From the UHGV virus genome UHGV-0207246: 44,163 nt of DNA. One strand, 5' to 3'. The notes beneath the pieces are model-generated. The model was not told where the DNA came from. It ran no database searches and saw only the letters and a program-made list of their open reading frames with translations. Source of the DNA: a virus. Positions 6,656 to 43,272 of this stretch are shown here, one piece after another; positions within the stretch are counted from its first letter, which is position 1; each line of letters starts with the position of its first letter. The translations under genes were made by a program, and so were the position numbers.

Positions 6656-6679
6656 AAGGCCCCGAAAGGGGCCTTTTCT
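6656..6679. terminator. bidirectional rho-independent terminator
   Basis: AAGGCCCC-GAAA-GGGGCCTT flanked by A-run and T-run between convergent genes. Confidence 0.75.
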
Positions 6680-21689: not shown

Positions 21690-23861
21690 CTACTTGGCGT
21701 ATCTGTACATTTCGCTACCTTCTGCTACAAGAGGGAACCCCTCCGCCCATTCCGGCAATTCGCACATCAACCGCTCAAGCTCTGCTACATTGTATTCCGG
21801 TGAATCTGGTGTCTCGCAGATAATCTCATCGTGTACGTGAAGTACAATCGGGTAGCCGTTTGCTTCTACGTTCAGCAGGGCATTAGCCAGCAAATCACGG
21901 CACAATGCCTGAGTGCAGTTTTCCACCAGTTTACCCGAGTAGGTGTACTGGAACCCCCACTGACGGGTTAGCTGATTTTCGCCCTGGTACTTAATGCGCA
22001 CGTTAGTAGACACTTTTCCATCTTCGTCTGTTTCTTTCGACACGCTCAACCCGACGCCTGGATAAGACATAACGCGACCAGACGGCAACGTCATGCGCAG
22101 CCACCAACCGGCGACTTTGTTGCCGTTGTTATCTGTCTCCACGTTGCGCGAAAACTTAACGCCACGCGGCCCTGCGGTGAACTCTTTACCTGGGTTGCGG
22201 ATAGCCGCCATAGCCGCGTCTTCAATATCGCGCCAGAATTGGACTATTGCAGGATTAGCTTCCCGGTACATGCGCTTTAAAGCGTCACAGGTGCGCCAAA
22301 CTTTCTTATCAAGGATATATGAGGGTCGGTCATCTTTTTCACCAGGACGTGGTGGTCGCTTGGCTTCCTGAATACGCGCCCATTCGTATCCGCGTGCGGT
22401 AGCGGCCCAAATATGGTCCGGGAATGTACCGTCTAAAGTGTTAGTCATGTCATTCAAATCAAGACCTAAGTTTTTAGCAAACGTGACGAAAGCACCGACG
22501 CCCCCCGCGTAGCCGAGTCCCAGAACCATTGCTTTGGCTATTTGTCTTTGGTCCTTTGTTACGGCTTCATATGCAACATTGAACACCGTTGATGCGAGTT
22601 TCTTATACACATCAACCCCGTTTACAAATACTTCGATTAAATCGTCTTCACCCGCCAGCCACGCAAGCCCGCGACCCTCAACGTTAGAGTAATCGGCGAC
22701 GACAAACTTATGCCCTGCTTCCGGTATGATGCAACTGCGAACCGTCGATGCCGTTAGCTTGGCTACGTCAAATCGGCGGTGCGCACGGCCCTTAAGTAAC
22801 GCAGAAATGCCTTTATCCAGTTCATCATCATGATAGTACCCGCGCGCCAGGTTCTGCGGCTGGAAGCCTTTACCGGCAAATCGTAATGTACGCTTAGCTC
22901 CACCATACTGTATGCAACCGCGTCGGCGGTCGTCCGAAGAGCGGCCCAGCAGCAGCGGGGTATATTTCGTTGACGCTGTTGACGCGGCCCCGAGGCGCAT
23001 TTCGATAATCATCCGGGCGTCGTCCGGTAAATCATCATCTGCCAACAGGTCGTTAAGCGTCGACTTCTGTGCATTGTGTATGCGGTGCGCGGGCGAAAGT
23101 TCACGCAGAATCGGAAGGAAGTCTTTACCGGTAAGCGAGCCGCCATATTTACGTTGAGCTTCTTCCTGTAACTGTGCCTTGTGCTTCTCTACGGCTTCAA
23201 TCGCGGCTTCCGCCAGTGCGACGTCAACCTTAAATCCGCGGTCGTTGATTAACTGGTCAAGTTCCAGTACACGGTCTTCGAACTCGGAGTTACCCCAACG
23301 CGGCAGCTTATGGAAGACTTCACGCATCGCAGTGATGTCGCTCACGGCGTACTTGATGAACAGCGCCCACTCATCCGGGTGCGTTTCAGCAGTGTAGCGG
23401 CGGATTTTGTAGTTCTTCGGTGTCGGTTTAGAAAAACGCTGAATAAGCGCTTTGCCTCGTTTGTCTTTCGCGTTGTCTGCGGACACGCCAAGCACTTCAC
23501 ACAGCGCATCAAGAGAACCCGGCAGCGCGTGACGAAACGCCCAAATCATCGTATCGATAGTGTTGCTTACCGGAATATCAAAGCCCCAGCAATGCTTCAT
23601 GACGAGCCTGTCGAACATTGAGCCATTGTGCCACACCATCTTAATGCGACTGTTTGGCTTAACCAGACGGCGCAGTGCGCGGTGCAAATCCCCCGGCATG
23701 TCGCTGCCGTCTGTGCAATCCCATACCTGTACAGGCTCGTCATCAAAAGCATAGGTACAGATAAGCACTTCGGTAGTCGGGTGTTCGGCGTAAGCATAGG
23801 AGCCGAATTTCTTTAAATCGGCTTCGGAGAATGTTTCAAAGTCTAAGAACAGGTAACTCAT
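21690..23861 (-). CDS. family A DNA polymerase with 3'-5' exonuclease domain
   Basis: Exo I FLDFETFS; Pol motif A DYSNVEGR, motif B RQIAKAMVLGLGYAGG, motif C LHVHDEI. Confidence 0.85.
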   Translation of the reverse strand: MSYLFLDFETFSEADLKKFGSYAYAEHPTTEVLICTYAFDDEPVQVWDCTDGSDMPGDLHRALRRLVKPNSRIKMVWHNGSMFDRLVMKHCWGFDIPVSNTIDTMIWAFRHALPGSLDALCEVLGVSADNAKDKRGKALIQRFSKPTPKNYKIRRYTAETHPDEWALFIKYAVSDITAMREVFHKLPRWGNSEFEDRVLELDQLINDRGFKVDVALAEAAIEAVEKHKAQLQEEAQRKYGGSLTGKDFLPILRELSPAHRIHNAQKSTLNDLLADDDLPDDARMIIEMRLGAASTASTKYTPLLLGRSSDDRRRGCIQYGGAKRTLRFAGKGFQPQNLARGYYHDDELDKGISALLKGRAHRRFDVAKLTASTVRSCIIPEAGHKFVVADYSNVEGRGLAWLAGEDDLIEVFVNGVDVYKKLASTVFNVAYEAVTKDQRQIAKAMVLGLGYAGGVGAFVTFAKNLGLDLNDMTNTLDGTFPDHIWAATARGYEWARIQEAKRPPRPGEKDDRPSYILDKKVWRTCDALKRMYREANPAIVQFWRDIEDAAMAAIRNPGKEFTAGPRGVKFSRNVETDNNGNKVAGWWLRMTLPSGRVMSYPGVGLSVSKETDEDGKVSTNVRIKYQGENQLTRQWGFQYTYSGKLVENCTQALCRDLLANALLNVEANGYPIVLHVHDEIICETPDSPEYNVAELERLMCELPEWAEGFPLVAEGSEMYRYAK

Positions 23862-23920: not shown

Positions 23921-24547
23921 TTAGCGGCGACGACGCTCGCGGCGCGGTGCTTCATCTTCTTCGTCGTCTTCCAGGTCATTGACGCTTGCAGCGACTTTAG
24001 AACCGCCAAACGCTTTACCTTCACCAACGTATTTAATCGCCAGCAGGTTAACACCGAGGACTTTGTATTTCTGACTGAACCAGATTTCGACGCTTACGTT
24101 AGCAACGCAGCCGCTGTAAACCTGTTCGCCTTCAATCTGTTCACCGTCTACATTGAAGTCCTGTTCTACCTGAGTCTCACCTTTTTTAGAGGTTACAATC
24201 AGTGGCTGTTTCTGTGCCTTCGCTTTGAAGTAGAAGCCTTCCGGGAAGTCTTCAAACGGATTGTCGCGCTCGGCGATGTCTTTAATCGCGCATTTATCCA
24301 TGTGCTTACCTTCGCCGTAGTTGGACTTCATCCACTTCTCGGCGGCGGCTGCACCTAATGCTTCTTCAACTACAGCGTAGACTGTGTCGTAGAGCGCATC
24401 GATTTGCGCGTGGTCAGACGGCAGGATGATAGTTGCGCTATACTGACCTTTAGTGATTGAGCCATCATCGTTTTCACGGTCTTTTTCGCGTTCGAATACG
24501 TTAACCCAAGCAGTGTTTACTTTACGCAGATTTAATTTCAGTCCCAT
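23921..24547 (-). CDS. SSB-like protein (DUF2815-like) candidate
   Basis: Acidic C-terminal region; position between Cas4-like nuclease and PolA resembles the DUF2800-DUF2815-PolA arrangement (recalled, not searched). Confidence 0.4.
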   Translation of the reverse strand: MGLKLNLRKVNTAWVNVFEREKDRENDDGSITKGQYSATIILPSDHAQIDALYDTVYAVVEEALGAAAAEKWMKSNYGEGKHMDKCAIKDIAERDNPFEDFPEGFYFKAKAQKQPLIVTSKKGETQVEQDFNVDGEQIEGEQVYSGCVANVSVEIWFSQKYKVLGVNLLAIKYVGEGKAFGGSKVAASVNDLEDDEEDEAPRRERRRR

Positions 24548-24600
24548 CTTGATTTCTCGCTTTTAAGTTTACTCCGGGAACCGCCCGGCCAGTGATTAGA

Positions 24601-24629
24601 ACTATAATAGCTTACTATTCAGGTGTCAA
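24601..24629 (-). promoter_or_regulatory. class II promoter (TTGACA-17-TATAGT)
   Basis: Reverse complement TTGACACCTGAATAGTAAGCTATTATAGT. Confidence 0.65.
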
Positions 24630-24633
24630 CACT

Positions 24634-25908
24634 TTATTCTAAATCTTCTTCACTAACCTGATCCCACTCAGGACGTTTGTCGTCTGCCGTTGCGACACAT
24701 GGTGCGCCTGGCTTACGGGTAATAAAGTCTTTCAGTTCTTCTTCCGGTATAACTTTAACCGCTTCGGTGGGCGTCATGAGAACTACCTTTTGCAGCATAG
24801 TACCGTACTTCTCGAATACTGCATCGGTATCTTTCCACGCACGATTACCCGGGCGACCCTCAACCAGTTTGTACCCTGGAACTTTCTTACCGGAATGCAA
24901 CGCGGCAGCCATAGCTTTCTCAACCTTGTCGATGTGCTGGCGCAGCATCGGCAACTTCTCATACTCAGCTACGAGTTGCTCAGGAGTGAGTTCCAGCGCA
25001 AAGTCGTCCTCCAGTTCTTCCGCCAGTACGGAATTAACCGTCTTTGTACGCGCGGCGCATTGTTCCGAGAACCTACACCACTGACAACCATCGACCGACG
25101 GCCTGAAGTCCGACGCTTTCAGGTTCTTCTTACCGCGGAAATAAGCATCAAGCGCTAACAGCGCGCGTTTCTGTGCGAACTTAGCGAACAGTTCCAGACC
25201 TTCAACCGAGATGTCCCACTCCGACGCACCGCCCGCGTATGGCTGGAAGATGACCAGACGAACCACGGTGATGTTATAACGTCTCTTGAGTCGGCGATAA
25301 ACACCAAGAGCGTAAAGCATAAGCTGTTTGTTTTCTTTCGCTTCGACGCGATGCCGTCCTGTTTTCAGGTCTGTGATATTAAGTATAAATTCGTCTGTAT
25401 TTGCTTTTTCTAGCACGGCAACAAGGTCAGCGGTTCCGAACGTCTCTAAATCATCCTCCTCGCCTTCTTCACCATCAGCGGGTACTTTGTAGCCAGGATG
25501 TAGCACCTGAGTAAGATTTACGCGCATCTCGAGCTTGGCATAAGTCGCTACGTCGATAATCGCTTTGCAGTAGTCGGTGTACTTGCGCACCTGCTCAATC
25601 ATGTCCGCCGTAATCAGTACCGCGCCTTTCATAGGACTGATTAGCGCCTTAATCTGGCCTTTACCCTCATCCAGCACGTAAGCACCTACTTCGCGCTCTA
25701 ACGGCAACGCAGTGCCTTTGATGTACTGGTTTAAGTGCATCTCAGCTATGGTGTGCATAGCCGTTCCTAATACGGCGGCTTTACCTGACGTGTTAGGAAT
25801 ATCTTTTTCACAGGCCAGTGATGCACTGCACGCCAGCCACTTTTTAGCACCAGACGGCGACAGTAAGGCGTGCACATCGTTATTGCCGCCGCGTTCCTTT
25901 AAAATCAT
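24634..25908 (-). CDS. PD-(D/E)XK nuclease, Cas4/RecB-like (DUF2800-like) with C-terminal Cys cluster
   Basis: Motifs ITDLKTG, QLMLYA, C-terminal CQWCRFSEQC; start at ATG with RBS GGGAGAG, ATGA-coupled to upstream gene. Confidence 0.6.
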   Translation of the reverse strand: MILKERGGNNDVHALLSPSGAKKWLACSASLACEKDIPNTSGKAAVLGTAMHTIAEMHLNQYIKGTALPLEREVGAYVLDEGKGQIKALISPMKGAVLITADMIEQVRKYTDYCKAIIDVATYAKLEMRVNLTQVLHPGYKVPADGEEGEEDDLETFGTADLVAVLEKANTDEFILNITDLKTGRHRVEAKENKQLMLYALGVYRRLKRRYNITVVRLVIFQPYAGGASEWDISVEGLELFAKFAQKRALLALDAYFRGKKNLKASDFRPSVDGCQWCRFSEQCAARTKTVNSVLAEELEDDFALELTPEQLVAEYEKLPMLRQHIDKVEKAMAAALHSGKKVPGYKLVEGRPGNRAWKDTDAVFEKYGTMLQKVVLMTPTEAVKVIPEEELKDFITRKPGAPCVATADDKRPEWDQVSEEDLE

Positions 25909-26177
25909 ACCCTGCTCTCCCACTGGTCAATTAAATGTCGTGTCTTATGGTCGCAGTGCATAGCCCACCCATACATCGACTCGAAGACATAAAAGTCAGG
26001 TTTGGCGAAAGTCGTGCGCTTAATATGTGACACGTGGCGGCCTATGTCTTTAGGCCGTGGCACTTTGCCTAAGTACGCCATCTCTTCCATCTGGTGCGCA
26101 CCGGACGGCGCACGCAACAGCCATAGCGCATCTGTGTTATCCCGCCTGTCAACGGCGCGGTAGAGTTGGTAAATCAT
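25905..26177 (-). CDS. hypothetical protein
   Basis: ORF track; ATGA coupling. Confidence 0.4.
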   Translation of the reverse strand: MIYQLYRAVDRRDNTDALWLLRAPSGAHQMEEMAYLGKVPRPKDIGRHVSHIKRTTFAKPDFYVFESMYGWAMHCDHKTRHLIDQWESRV

Positions 26178-26220: not shown

Positions 26221-26721
26221 TTATTCTTCTTCGAAATACTTGTTCTTGATCGCCGTCAGGCGTTCCAGGTACTCTGCCAGGTCTTCATCTTTAATCGCGG
26301 CAATCTTCATCTTCTTACCGGTGAACTCTTCCAGCAGTTCGTCAGAATCGTCGCACGCGGCATCGCTTGGACCTTCGTTAATCGCATCGTCGATAGCCTG
26401 AATCTGGTCCCGAAGAGACTGGTAATCGACTTCTTCTTTCTCTTCTTCCGGCTCTGGCGTAGGCTCCTCTGCTTTAGCTTTACGCGGCTTGCGTTTAGGC
26501 TTCTCGTCTTCCGCCGGTTTAGTGTCGACGATGTTTTCACCTTCGACCGGGATTTCTTTTGTTGCTTCTTCGGTGCACTCGGCTACCGCTTCTTTGGCAT
26601 ACACTACCGTCTCTACTTCCAGCGGCGCGGCAACCTGAACAACCTGTTTCACACTGTTCGCAGCAATCAGTTCATGCGCAACTACGAAACGTTCCAGTAA
26701 TTTCAGAAATTGTTCTAACAT
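26221..26721 (-). CDS. highly acidic protein (candidate DNA mimic / host takeover factor)
   Basis: First gene after strong class II promoter, RBS GAGGAGAG; E/D-rich with KPKRKPRKAKAEE linker. Confidence 0.5.
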   Translation of the reverse strand: MLEQFLKLLERFVVAHELIAANSVKQVVQVAAPLEVETVVYAKEAVAECTEEATKEIPVEGENIVDTKPAEDEKPKRKPRKAKAEEPTPEPEEEKEEVDYQSLRDQIQAIDDAINEGPSDAACDDSDELLEEFTGKKMKIAAIKDEDLAEYLERLTAIKNKYFEEE

Positions 26722-26752
26722 TTGTTTCTCTCCTCTCGTTTGGTATGGGCTA

Positions 26753-26781
26753 ACTATAATAGCGAACTATTCACATGTCAA
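26753..26781 (-). promoter_or_regulatory. class II promoter (TTGACA-17-TATAGT)
   Basis: Perfect -35, 17 bp spacer TGTGAATAGTTCGCTAT, -10 TATAGT, about 30 nt upstream of ATG. Confidence 0.7.
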
Positions 26782-26845
26782 TGGGTTTTTCTAAAATAAT
26801 TAATATGGTACTATTCGCATATCAACTAACTAAGGAGTAATTGAT

Positions 26846-27079: not shown

Positions 27080-29299
27080 CTATTCCAAATCCTCTTCTGT
27101 CACTACCAGCATTTCATTCGGTTCGTATATTGTCTTCGGTCTTAGTCTATCCCCTATTCTTTCAGGTATACGATACGTTCTCGGTACTACTTCGCCATTA
27201 GCATCACAGCCTAGCATTAGTTCACCATCTTTCAGCATTTTATCAAGATGGGTGTTAGTCACAGAAAAGTCACCGGAACGGGCAACTATCTGCTGCTGAG
27301 TAAAACCGCGACCTGTGTCATCTGACTGTTGCAGGTCTTCCAGTGCCGAAAGTATTGACTCCTTCCTTACTTCATCCTTCCCACGTTTTACGGCATTCTT
27401 TACGTTTTCTTTACCTTCCTTTGCCAGCCCTTCTTCGCGCTCTTTCTCCTCGTCGGTTTTGAACGGCTCGAAGCCCCACGGCATCAGCACAAGTGCCTTA
27501 TGCGGCTCAGGAAGGTCCAGGTTTACGATTGTGCCGTATTCTTCTGTGCTACCCAGGAACTCAACAGCACGGTATTCTTTCGGCGGCGGGGCTTCACGGA
27601 ACTGTACAGACTCAAGCACCATGCCGACGGTTTTCTGTTGAGGCCCGTGCTTAAATTTCGAGTGGTATACGTTTATCTGGCGGTCGGTAGCGCGTTCGAT
27701 TGTCAGCTCGACGTCGACACCTGCATACAGTGCCCCGCTGCCACGGGCTTTCTTTCCACCCTTCGGCGTATGGTGGACAACGCCCACCGCGGCTTTAGTC
27801 GCATCACGTACTTCTTTCAGGATGGCGATAACTTTACCCATACCGATTGCCGTGGACGAACTGTTCTCGTCGAACTTATCAATCGTCAGGGCTAGCGTCT
27901 GGTTAAGGGTATCAAACGCGACCACCCCAATTGGCTCATCGCCAGCAGTTTCACGCATTAACTTAATCAGGCTTTTCAGTTTTCCGACTTCGCCCATATC
28001 GATAACATGTACATAATCTTTACCTTCCTCGCCATATTTAGCCGCTAGCGCATCAATACGTGTACGTGTAGCTGCACCGCCTTCGCCATCGATATAGAAA
28101 TGGTGGCAACGCTGGGTATCCGCCCCTGCAAACCGGTATCCGGCGGCGCTCAGGTACATCATCCCCAGCGTATAGAATGATTTGTACGTACCAGATTCAC
28201 CGACAATATCCCATATGCAATCTGACGGCATGTACCCCTCAACGACGAAATCAGCCTTTACCGGTTCCGGTAGCTCGTCCTCTTCTGAGCCCTCGTCTTC
28301 CAGGTCGTCGAGGCTGCAAGTTACTGGATCCTCGTTCTCTGTGCGGTGTAGTTCTTCAATCTCTTCTTCCGGTAAATCAGGTAGAGCCGCACGAATGCTG
28401 TTAATGCTGATAGGTTGCTTATCTACGTTAAGCTCGTCGGGTAGGCCACACATACGCAGGGCCAAATGCTGCCTACGGTTAAGCTCGGTGCAAGCGCCGT
28501 TGTTTGTATGCTGGCAGACAAAGCGAACTTCTTTACCGTCGAGCATGATGCTGGTGGAGCCCTTGCCTGTATGCAGATGTTCGTTAGGGCATGGCACTTC
28601 GTACCCGCGACCAGAAGATAAGACGTCAAGGCCAAGCTCGGCTTCGCAGAAATGCGCTATATCTGCGTTAAGCCCATGCTCATCGGCGGCAAGTGTCTTA
28701 GCTTCGCGTTTACGCAACCCCATCTCTTCGGCTTTCTTGATGTACCGCTCGGCACGGATAACACGCCCTTCTGTAACCGTTATCTTCGACTCTCTATGTG
28801 GCAGGTAGATGAGGCGGTTGCCATCTTCCGTGCAGTGGTCGCGCAATGCTTCGTCTATTTCTAACTCTGCACAAATAGCCCGTTGAACCATCCACGCGTC
28901 GTTAGAGTTAAACGGCGTGCGAGCCGGTACGAGAACGCGGAAGGCGTAATCACCGTTTTTACACGCATGTTGATGCGATGCCGTTGTGTGCAGAATATTG
29001 AAGAACGGTGCGATCTTGAATTTGCGGGTAAGGTCGCGGTACTGAGTACGGTTTAGATGGTCGAAGTCGAACTTAACCACACTGTCTTCCAGAATAGCGT
29101 TTTTACGGCGGCCACCAACAGGCGCAATAGCTTTCTGTTTAATCTTGGCAGCGTCGTACTCTTCTTTAGTCCATGACGGGTCCACGGACAAACGCTTTGA
29201 TGTATCACAGACATACTCTACGAACTGCTCCAGCGGCATTTCACGCGCTACAGGGTTTTTATCGAATGTGTTACGCAGCGTTGCAAAAACAATATTCAT
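27080..29299 (-). CDS. DNA primase/helicase (primase-polymerase-like N-terminus, RecA/DnaB-like ATPase C-terminus)
   Basis: N-terminal DFDHL; Walker A-like GESGTYKS and Walker B-like IGVVAFDTL. Confidence 0.65.
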   Translation of the reverse strand: MNIVFATLRNTFDKNPVAREMPLEQFVEYVCDTSKRLSVDPSWTKEEYDAAKIKQKAIAPVGGRRKNAILEDSVVKFDFDHLNRTQYRDLTRKFKIAPFFNILHTTASHQHACKNGDYAFRVLVPARTPFNSNDAWMVQRAICAELEIDEALRDHCTEDGNRLIYLPHRESKITVTEGRVIRAERYIKKAEEMGLRKREAKTLAADEHGLNADIAHFCEAELGLDVLSSGRGYEVPCPNEHLHTGKGSTSIMLDGKEVRFVCQHTNNGACTELNRRQHLALRMCGLPDELNVDKQPISINSIRAALPDLPEEEIEELHRTENEDPVTCSLDDLEDEGSEEDELPEPVKADFVVEGYMPSDCIWDIVGESGTYKSFYTLGMMYLSAAGYRFAGADTQRCHHFYIDGEGGAATRTRIDALAAKYGEEGKDYVHVIDMGEVGKLKSLIKLMRETAGDEPIGVVAFDTLNQTLALTIDKFDENSSSTAIGMGKVIAILKEVRDATKAAVGVVHHTPKGGKKARGSGALYAGVDVELTIERATDRQINVYHSKFKHGPQQKTVGMVLESVQFREAPPPKEYRAVEFLGSTEEYGTIVNLDLPEPHKALVLMPWGFEPFKTDEEKEREEGLAKEGKENVKNAVKRGKDEVRKESILSALEDLQQSDDTGRGFTQQQIVARSGDFSVTNTHLDKMLKDGELMLGCDANGEVVPRTYRIPERIGDRLRPKTIYEPNEMLVVTEEDLE

Positions 29300-30061: not shown

Positions 30062-30091
30062 TTGAAAGTTCTTGACTCATGTTTGTATAAT
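30062..30091 (+). promoter_or_regulatory. rightward promoter (TTGAAA-18-TATAAT) of a non-coding unit
   Basis: Perfect -10 TATAAT, -35 TTGAAA with 18 bp spacer; no ORF before the terminator at 30291. Confidence 0.55.
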
Positions 30092-40493: not shown

Positions 40494-40518
40494 AAAAAGG
40501 CCCCTTTCGGGGCCTTAG
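40494..40518. terminator. bidirectional rho-independent terminator
   Basis: AAAAAGGCCCC-TTTC-GGGGCCTT then AGTTTTATT. Confidence 0.7.
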
Positions 40519-43240: not shown

Positions 43241-43272
43241 AAAAGGCCCCGTATGGGGCCCTAGTTTTATTT
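43241..43272. terminator. bidirectional rho-independent terminator
   Basis: AAAAGGCCCC-GTAT-GGGGCC then AGTTTTATTT. Confidence 0.65.

Follow-up and report, generated by a model that had tools for sequence, protein, structure and literature searches.

The stretch of DNA analysed here (the window, 44,163 nucleotides) comes from a Kagunavirus (Guernseyvirinae) Escherichia siphophage, and its best megablast match is phage vB_EcoS_HSE2, with 94% identity. The open reading frame under study lies on the minus strand between a divergent regulator gene and a set of replication and recombination genes, and is referred to below as the acidic gene (Table 1). It is a real, conserved gene. Its product (18.7 kDa at full length) contains 32 Glu and 12 Asp residues (26.5%) and 22 Lys and Arg residues (13% basic), has a net charge of -22 and a pI of 4.4, and ranks first for acidity among the 73 ORFs of at least 80 amino acids in the window. 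The Glu/Asp-rich composition reported in an earlier note on this DNA is thus borne out, and so is the lysine-rich linker, since the stretch EKPKRKPRKAKA occupies residues 73-84 (nt 26470-26505) inside a segment that is predicted to be disordered. The product is 100% identical to gp012 of vB_EcoS_HSE2, which is annotated as 'hypothetical protein', and it is matched by approximately 1,900 clusters at the 90% identity level. Synonymous sites in the acidic gene vary freely while the amino acids are held, indicating purifying selection on the protein.

Table 1. Positions of the acidic gene, its parts, its expression signals and the neighbouring genes in the window
Feature	Position	Strand	Remarks
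Acidic-protein CDS	26221..26721	minus	ATG start, 166 aa, TAA stop
N-terminal helix, codons 1-23, MLEQFLKLLERFVVAHELIAANS	26653..26721	minus	predicted amphipathic; near-invariant across Guernseyvirinae
Disordered linker, codons 24-98	26428..26652	minus	pLDDT <50; alternating acidic and basic stretches; sequence varies among relatives
Basic cluster KPKRKPRKAK, codons 74-83	26473..26502	minus	inside the acidic linker
Three-helix C-domain, codons 99-166	26224..26427	minus	pLDDT ~90; net charge -12; ends in KYFEEE
Sigma-70-type promoter TTGACA-17-TATAGT	26781..26753	minus	11/12 match; 31 nt before the ATG
Shine-Dalgarno GAGAGGAG (AGGAG)	26730-26737	minus	8 nt from the ATG
HTH_3 (Cro/CI-type) regulator, 71 aa	26846..27061	plus	divergent from the acidic gene
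orf90 (PHROG 4965, unknown function)	25905..26177	minus	next gene after the acidic gene
DUF2800 / PD-(D/E)XK (Cas4-like) exonuclease	24634..25923	minus	
Enc34-type (gp2.5-like, former DUF2815) ssDNA-binding/annealing protein (SSB)	23921..24547	minus	
Family A DNA polymerase (PolA)	21690..23861	minus	
Helicase-primase, AAA_25 domain	27080..29299	minus	upstream, same strand as the acidic gene

Dozens of phage records name this protein the '13.88 kDa late protein', a label that may be traced to a 123-aa entry of Salmonella phage MB78 (BFVD Q9T1Z8) and that does not match the full-length size. It is a propagated name, not a characterisation. Searches of the literature on MB78, on the '13.88 kDa late protein', on Kagunavirus anti-defence and on Jerseyvirus escape mutants turned up no characterisation of the acidic protein, which is an uncharacterised, ordinary-looking core gene product.

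The promoter of the acidic gene had been described as perfect and as the strongest of its class. Its -10 hexamer, TATAGT, reduces the match to 11 of 12 positions, and it is not unique, because the same hexamers with the same spacing recur at 24629..24601 (minus), within the 86-nt gap ahead of the gp2.5-like SSB gene. At least two internal promoters of equal quality are therefore present in the replication cluster. Further 11/12 sites are found at 30062 (plus) and 42393 (minus); the chance expectation for sites of this grade is, by our own estimate, approximately 0.6 per 88 kb. The ribosome-binding site, which had also been called strong, is an AGGAG-type Shine-Dalgarno sequence conserved throughout the relatives: a GGAG-type sequence is kept ahead of the acidic gene in all those examined. 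The promoter is kept only in the Kagunavirus subset that shares the local arrangement of the window.

The divergent promoter region that separates the acidic gene from the HTH gene contains two 25-nt direct repeats (26757-26781 and 26801-26825), which are 80% identical and 44 nt apart; the first of them overlaps the core of the acidic-gene promoter. The HTH protein could use the repeats as operators, or they could represent a tandem weaker promoter (TTGATA-17-TAATTA). A hairpin past the stop codon of the acidic gene was considered as an attenuating terminator and rejected, as it is not significant (z = -1.7) and is without a U-tract. Elsewhere in the window, a 20-nt GC-rich palindrome, AAGGCCCCGAAAGGGGCCTT, occurs twice (6656-6675 and 40497-40516) as a hairpin resembling a bidirectional terminator, with a third, close variant at 43243-43262.

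The placement of the acidic gene at the head of the replication operon holds for the transcription unit of exonuclease, SSB and polymerase, but not for the helicase-primase, whose gene is located upstream on the same strand. An SNF2 helicase gene is also found among the neighbours in the window. The module formed by the genes for DUF2800, the gp2.5-like SSB and PolA has been recognised in published work (PMC8093625), and four uncharacterised proteins are listed in the replication module of Enc34 (PMC5686142).

The acidic gene is present in practically every Guernseyvirinae genome. In a tblastn search, 445 phage records carry the acidic protein at 60% identity or above, versus 448 for the adjacent exonuclease. 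Judged from this distribution, it belongs to the fixed core of the replication module and is not a variable accessory gene. The order HTH gene / acidic gene, (orf90), DUF2800, gp2.5-like SSB and PolA is kept in all the distant Guernseyvirinae-like loci sampled (20 IMG/VR loci together with Serratia phage Otaku and Salmonella phage TS6), and the divergent pairing of the HTH and acidic genes is kept in most relatives examined, distant ones included. In the distant relatives (loci L004, L005 and L056-L074) the helicase-primase gene lies on the other strand and shares an operon with the HTH gene. Across the distant loci, identity falls to about 30% in the helicase-primase, 54% in the exonuclease, 48% in the SSB and 64% in the polymerase. 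A search for related loci with the exonuclease alignment returned just the same two lineages.

Some local variation is seen among close relatives. In phage Bas73 (locus L001, 5881-6340), two small same-strand ORFs take the place of the divergent HTH gene. HNH homing-endonuclease genes occupy the gap between the exonuclease and SSB genes in HSE2 (L075, 9184-9675) and that between the SSB and polymerase genes in EM1 (L002, 164-637); they are absent from the window (cf. 24548-24633) and represent an insertion polymorphism. The window SSB ends in DLEDDEEDEAPRRERRRR, where the acidic tail usual for such proteins is capped by an unusual, arginine-rich tip at which an acidic partner could dock.

An AlphaFold2 model of the acidic protein, built on an alignment of 59 sequences, consists of three parts: a helix at residues 2-23 (pLDDT ~80), a disordered segment at 27-90 (<50), and a three-helix bundle at 100-163 (~90). 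The predicted disorder covers about 65 residues, or 40% of the protein. The net charge is distributed unevenly, with -1 in the N-terminal helix, -9 in the linker and -12 in the C-domain, and over the family the total net charge ranges from -11 to -25. No enzyme fold, DNA-mimic fold or DNA-binding fold was found for the modelled protein, and in a fold comparison the C-domain matched generic bundles only.

The three parts are conserved in different ways. The N-terminal helix, with the consensus MLxxFLxLLERFVVAHELIAANS, is almost invariant even where overall identity is only 31-42%, and its conservation across the distant lineages (~90-100%) is far above that of any phage replication protein. A DNA or RNA element concealed within the invariant first 23 codons was considered and rejected, because the synonymous positions vary freely: four different codons are seen at Ala15 and four at Ala20, and codons of both serine families at Ser23. 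The linker (residues 24-98) is unalignable between family members, yet it is acidic in every case, and every member has at least five Lys or Arg residues in some 10-residue window of it. In some relatives the basic cluster contains AT-hook cores of the RGRP or RGR type (PKRGRKP in Otaku and AKRGRPAK in P0169). The C-domain is moderately conserved, with a family ending K-Y-[YF]-E-x-E, and its conserved residues include D99, L103, R104, I107, G117, S119, D124, D127, L129, D145, D147, K161, Y162, E164 and E166. In three metagenomic homologues (P0168, P0252 and P0264) the C-terminal three-helix domain is duplicated in tandem; these natural variants suggest that the number of C-domains matters.

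The acidic protein matches a single family, PHROG 3127, to which no function is assigned (E = 3.3e-68; residues 1-166 align with profile positions 1-177 of 178). There is no match in Pfam-A (hmmscan, E up to 10), the families for Ocr (PF08684) and ArdA (PF07275) included, and no significant match in NCBIfam or PADLOC. Queries of PDB sequences with the single sequence, the full-length profile and the C-domain profile gave no match, and comparison of the family alignment with lambda Bet by hhalign was negative. When 1.84 billion representatives were searched exhaustively with HMMER, 29 clusters reached an E-value of 0.001 or below. Almost all of these are family members or fragments, and the two non-family matches that were inspected are spurious (repeat or eukaryotic). 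With so few clusters among so many representatives, the family is narrow. The OB fold and acidic tail that define SSBs of the gp2.5/Enc34 type are not seen in the model, which is all-helical apart from the disorder, and homology to any named replication accessory family was not found among the profile and sequence databases searched.

Beyond the Guernseyvirinae, counterparts were sought by position and layout, namely directly upstream of the DUF2800 exonuclease gene, on the same strand, and with an N-terminal helix, a disordered linker and a small helical C-domain. This arrangement is found in the window, in all Guernseyvirinae-like and Dhillonvirus loci, and in Scapp, APSE-2, Vibrio phage 1.093.O, iEPS5, MA12, Sano and phi2958PVL. 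The Dhillonvirus proteins (SSL-2009a orf51 and HK578 gp44; PHROG 3127, E = 3e-51) have a clearly homologous C-domain and a diverged N-terminal helix, identical at 11 of 23 positions. Serratia phage Scapp gp055 also matches PHROG 3127 (E = 2.4e-11), being 30% acidic with a net charge of -17. When a C-domain HMM was run against 523 ORFs from seven distant loci, the top match was APSE-2 P53 (E = 3.4e-4), followed by Vibrio phage 1.093.O gp70, a borderline match (E = 0.045) of neutral charge.

The remaining proteins share the layout and are positional and architectural analogues only: Chi-like phage iEPS5 gp70, an unannotated ORF of Pectobacterium phage MA12, Xylella phage Sano gp74, which has a canonical AT-hook (PKRGRGRPAG), and Staphylococcus phage phi2958PVL JP016, whose gene overlaps the exonuclease gene by 4 nt. 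Homology of the Chi-like, Sano, MA12, PVL and Xfas53 proteins could not be demonstrated: with the C-domain HMM and one iteration their scores are not significant and are similar to those of a reversed-profile control. The MA12 ORF (L164, 3527-3928, plus) lies just upstream of the DUF2800 gene and encodes 133 aa; it resembles the Chi-like gp70 in having a helix, a T/K-rich linker and a helical C-domain with an acidic tail.

A conserved short helix, a linker constrained in composition and free in sequence, and an acidic domain that can be doubled, in a protein with no enzyme fold, are features that together favour a non-enzymatic adaptor. We tentatively infer that the acidic protein is an abundant accessory that acts as a tether or adaptor of the DUF2800, gp2.5-like SSB and PolA module, a role that may involve oligomerisation; our confidence in any particular partner is much lower. 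The N-terminal helix would self-associate or dock on a partner, the acidic C-domain would recognise a basic surface on one of the module proteins (exonuclease, SSB/annealase or polymerase), and the basic patch of the linker may contact DNA weakly. Acting in this way, the tether would link DNA synthesis to end resection and annealing. The same slot in the cassette is kept across the Guernseyvirinae, and homologues occur in Dhillonvirus, Scapp and APSE-2, both of which support this reading. The earlier note had offered an SSB-interacting factor as its fallback; a replication-associated role fits the conserved synteny and is favoured, and an interaction specifically with the SSB is one of several candidate contacts. 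Counting against a tether are the Vibrio counterpart, which is not acidic, and the scores of the reversed-profile control, which equal those of the more distant slot proteins. Given the Vibrio counterpart, acidity may be a feature of the lineage rather than the functional core.

The proposed adaptor may be compared with the acidic C-terminal tails of T7 gp2.5, T7 gp4 and bacterial SSB, which likewise are flexible, acidic and non-enzymatic elements with an aromatic and acidic end (KYFEEE in the present case). The acidic protein is encoded inside a gp2.5-type replication module, where basic patches on the polymerase or the SSB could serve as its docking sites. Unlike these tails, it is a gene product in its own right, which has an N-terminal helix of its own together with a folded three-helix domain and lacks an OB fold.

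A broader form of the adaptor proposal is also conceivable, although we consider it somewhat unlikely in its entirety. The acidic protein would be the Guernseyvirinae version of an unrecognised fourth component of the duf2800-gp2.5-polA cassette, a cassette found in phages from Staphylococcus to Xylella. In lambda Red-beta, the C-terminal domain forms a three-helix bundle to which lambda Exo and the SSB tail bind; as an oligomeric flexible tether, the acidic protein would supply in trans the docking domain that annealases of the Red-beta/RecT type carry in cis, and would physically couple exonuclease, annealase and polymerase. Together with orf90, it could shape the sensing of phage DNA ends by systems of the RecBCD/OLD type.

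Considerably more than a thousand sequenced phages replicate by means of the duf2800-gp2.5-polA cassette, among them therapeutic candidates (Kagunavirus, Jerseyvirus, Dhillonvirus and Chi-like phages) and staphylococcal prophages, and several conserved small proteins of the cassette are still without a known role. Recognition of the acidic protein as a fixed cassette component, and not as a host-specific, exchangeable gene for counter-defence, steers experiments toward replication and recombination, and stops an Ocr-like annotation based on composition only. Should it prove to tether exonuclease, annealase and polymerase, a missing piece in the organisation of gp2.5-type recombination-dependent replication would be supplied.

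Since the N-terminal helix is conserved beyond any phage replication protein, and this across Enterobacterales hosts, a conserved host partner would also fit. For example, the acidic C-domain and the linker might act as a nucleic-acid mimic that sequesters RecBCD or a nucleoid protein (H-NS, HU) and so protects the linear replication and recombination intermediates produced by the neighbouring exonuclease and annealase, but we regard this as unlikely. The strong negative charge and the location at the head of a recombination operon, comparable to lambda gam-bet-exo, are consistent with such a decoy, and like lambda Gam and T7 gp5.9, which inhibit RecBCD, the acidic protein is acidic, helical and encoded beside phage recombination genes. 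In contrast to them, it has a different architecture and shows no profile similarity (the probability for Gam in hhalign is 0.07%), it matches no fold of known mimics, 40% of it is predicted to be disordered, and it contains a basic cluster. The Vibrio counterpart is charge-neutral, and the N-terminal helix is only about half conserved in the Dhillonviruses (the 11 of 23 positions given above) despite the same host, which runs counter to a host target.

The OLD defence of P2, which fires upon RecBCD inhibition, bears on the host decoy in both directions. Sensitivity to P2 OLD is variable in Kagunaviruses and robust in Dhillonviruses, no RecBCD inhibitor is known in either, and one OLD escaper of HK578 carries a deletion within the divergent promoter region that adjoins gp44, the homologue of the acidic gene. 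However, the coding-region OLD escaper of this operon points to the neighbouring gene: a 1-nt deletion (frameshift) in HK578 gp43 leads to escape from P2 OLD defence (recent preprint), and gp43 is the homologue of orf90 (31% over 88 aa, E = 7e-10), not of the acidic gene. This makes orf90 a candidate trigger of OLD or a candidate RecBCD-related factor, one that HK578 at least can do without.

It is rather improbable that the acidic protein is a DNA-bound organiser, which would bind AT-rich DNA (an origin or the divergent promoter region) through its AT-hook-like basic patch and then bring in replication proteins, or else modulate the neighbouring HTH regulator or the RNA polymerase of the host. 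The presence of a basic cluster in every family member, the RGRP/RGR cores of Otaku, P0169 and the Sano analogue, and the conserved features of the locus (the divergent HTH_3 pairing and the direct repeats over the promoter) speak for such binding. Against it, the window protein lacks the R-G-R-P core, and RGR or GRP is found in just 3 of the 69 family sequences; the net charge throughout the family is unfavourable to DNA binding, no DNA-binding fold was found, and the phi2958PVL analogue, which overlaps the exonuclease gene, is far from the repressor region.

The lead reading of the earlier note, an Ocr/ArdA-like anti-restriction or anti-BREX DNA mimic, is very hard to sustain. The acidic protein is like T7 Ocr (gp0.3) and ArdA in that it is very acidic, small (similar to ArdA in length) and probably abundant, as its strong promoter and ribosome-binding site suggest. 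Ocr and ArdA, however, are compact folded dimers with few basic residues, whereas the acidic protein has no sequence or structural similarity to either, is a fixed core gene product of the replication module, and in the structure prediction that the earlier note had proposed as a check is modular and mostly disordered, with a dense basic cluster, rather than a compact mimic.

Restriction data for related phages point in the same direction. The Kagunaviruses of the BASEL collection carry copies that are 93% (Bas70_0047) and 92% (Bas73_0049) identical to the window protein. The published plating data cover neither BREX nor many other defence systems, which leaves some room for an anti-BREX function; with respect to restriction, the Kagunaviruses Bas70-76 'display a high sensitivity to RM systems' (PMC11990801). 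Phages with these copies are restricted 10^3- to 10^5-fold by the type I systems EcoKI and EcoCFT_I, and by type II and type III systems as well. Strong type I restriction of Bas70 in spite of such similar copies argues against anti-restriction, the related phages serving here as a proxy, and an anti-restriction role for type I R-M is largely refuted. The efficiencies of plating of Bas70 are 1.3e-5 and 5e-6 on EcoKI, 1e-3 and 4e-4 on EcoCFT_I, and about 1e-5 to 1e-6 on the type II and type III systems, and type I recognition sites number 2-4 per genome in Bas71-74, a count that does not include Bas70 (PMC11990801 S1 Data).
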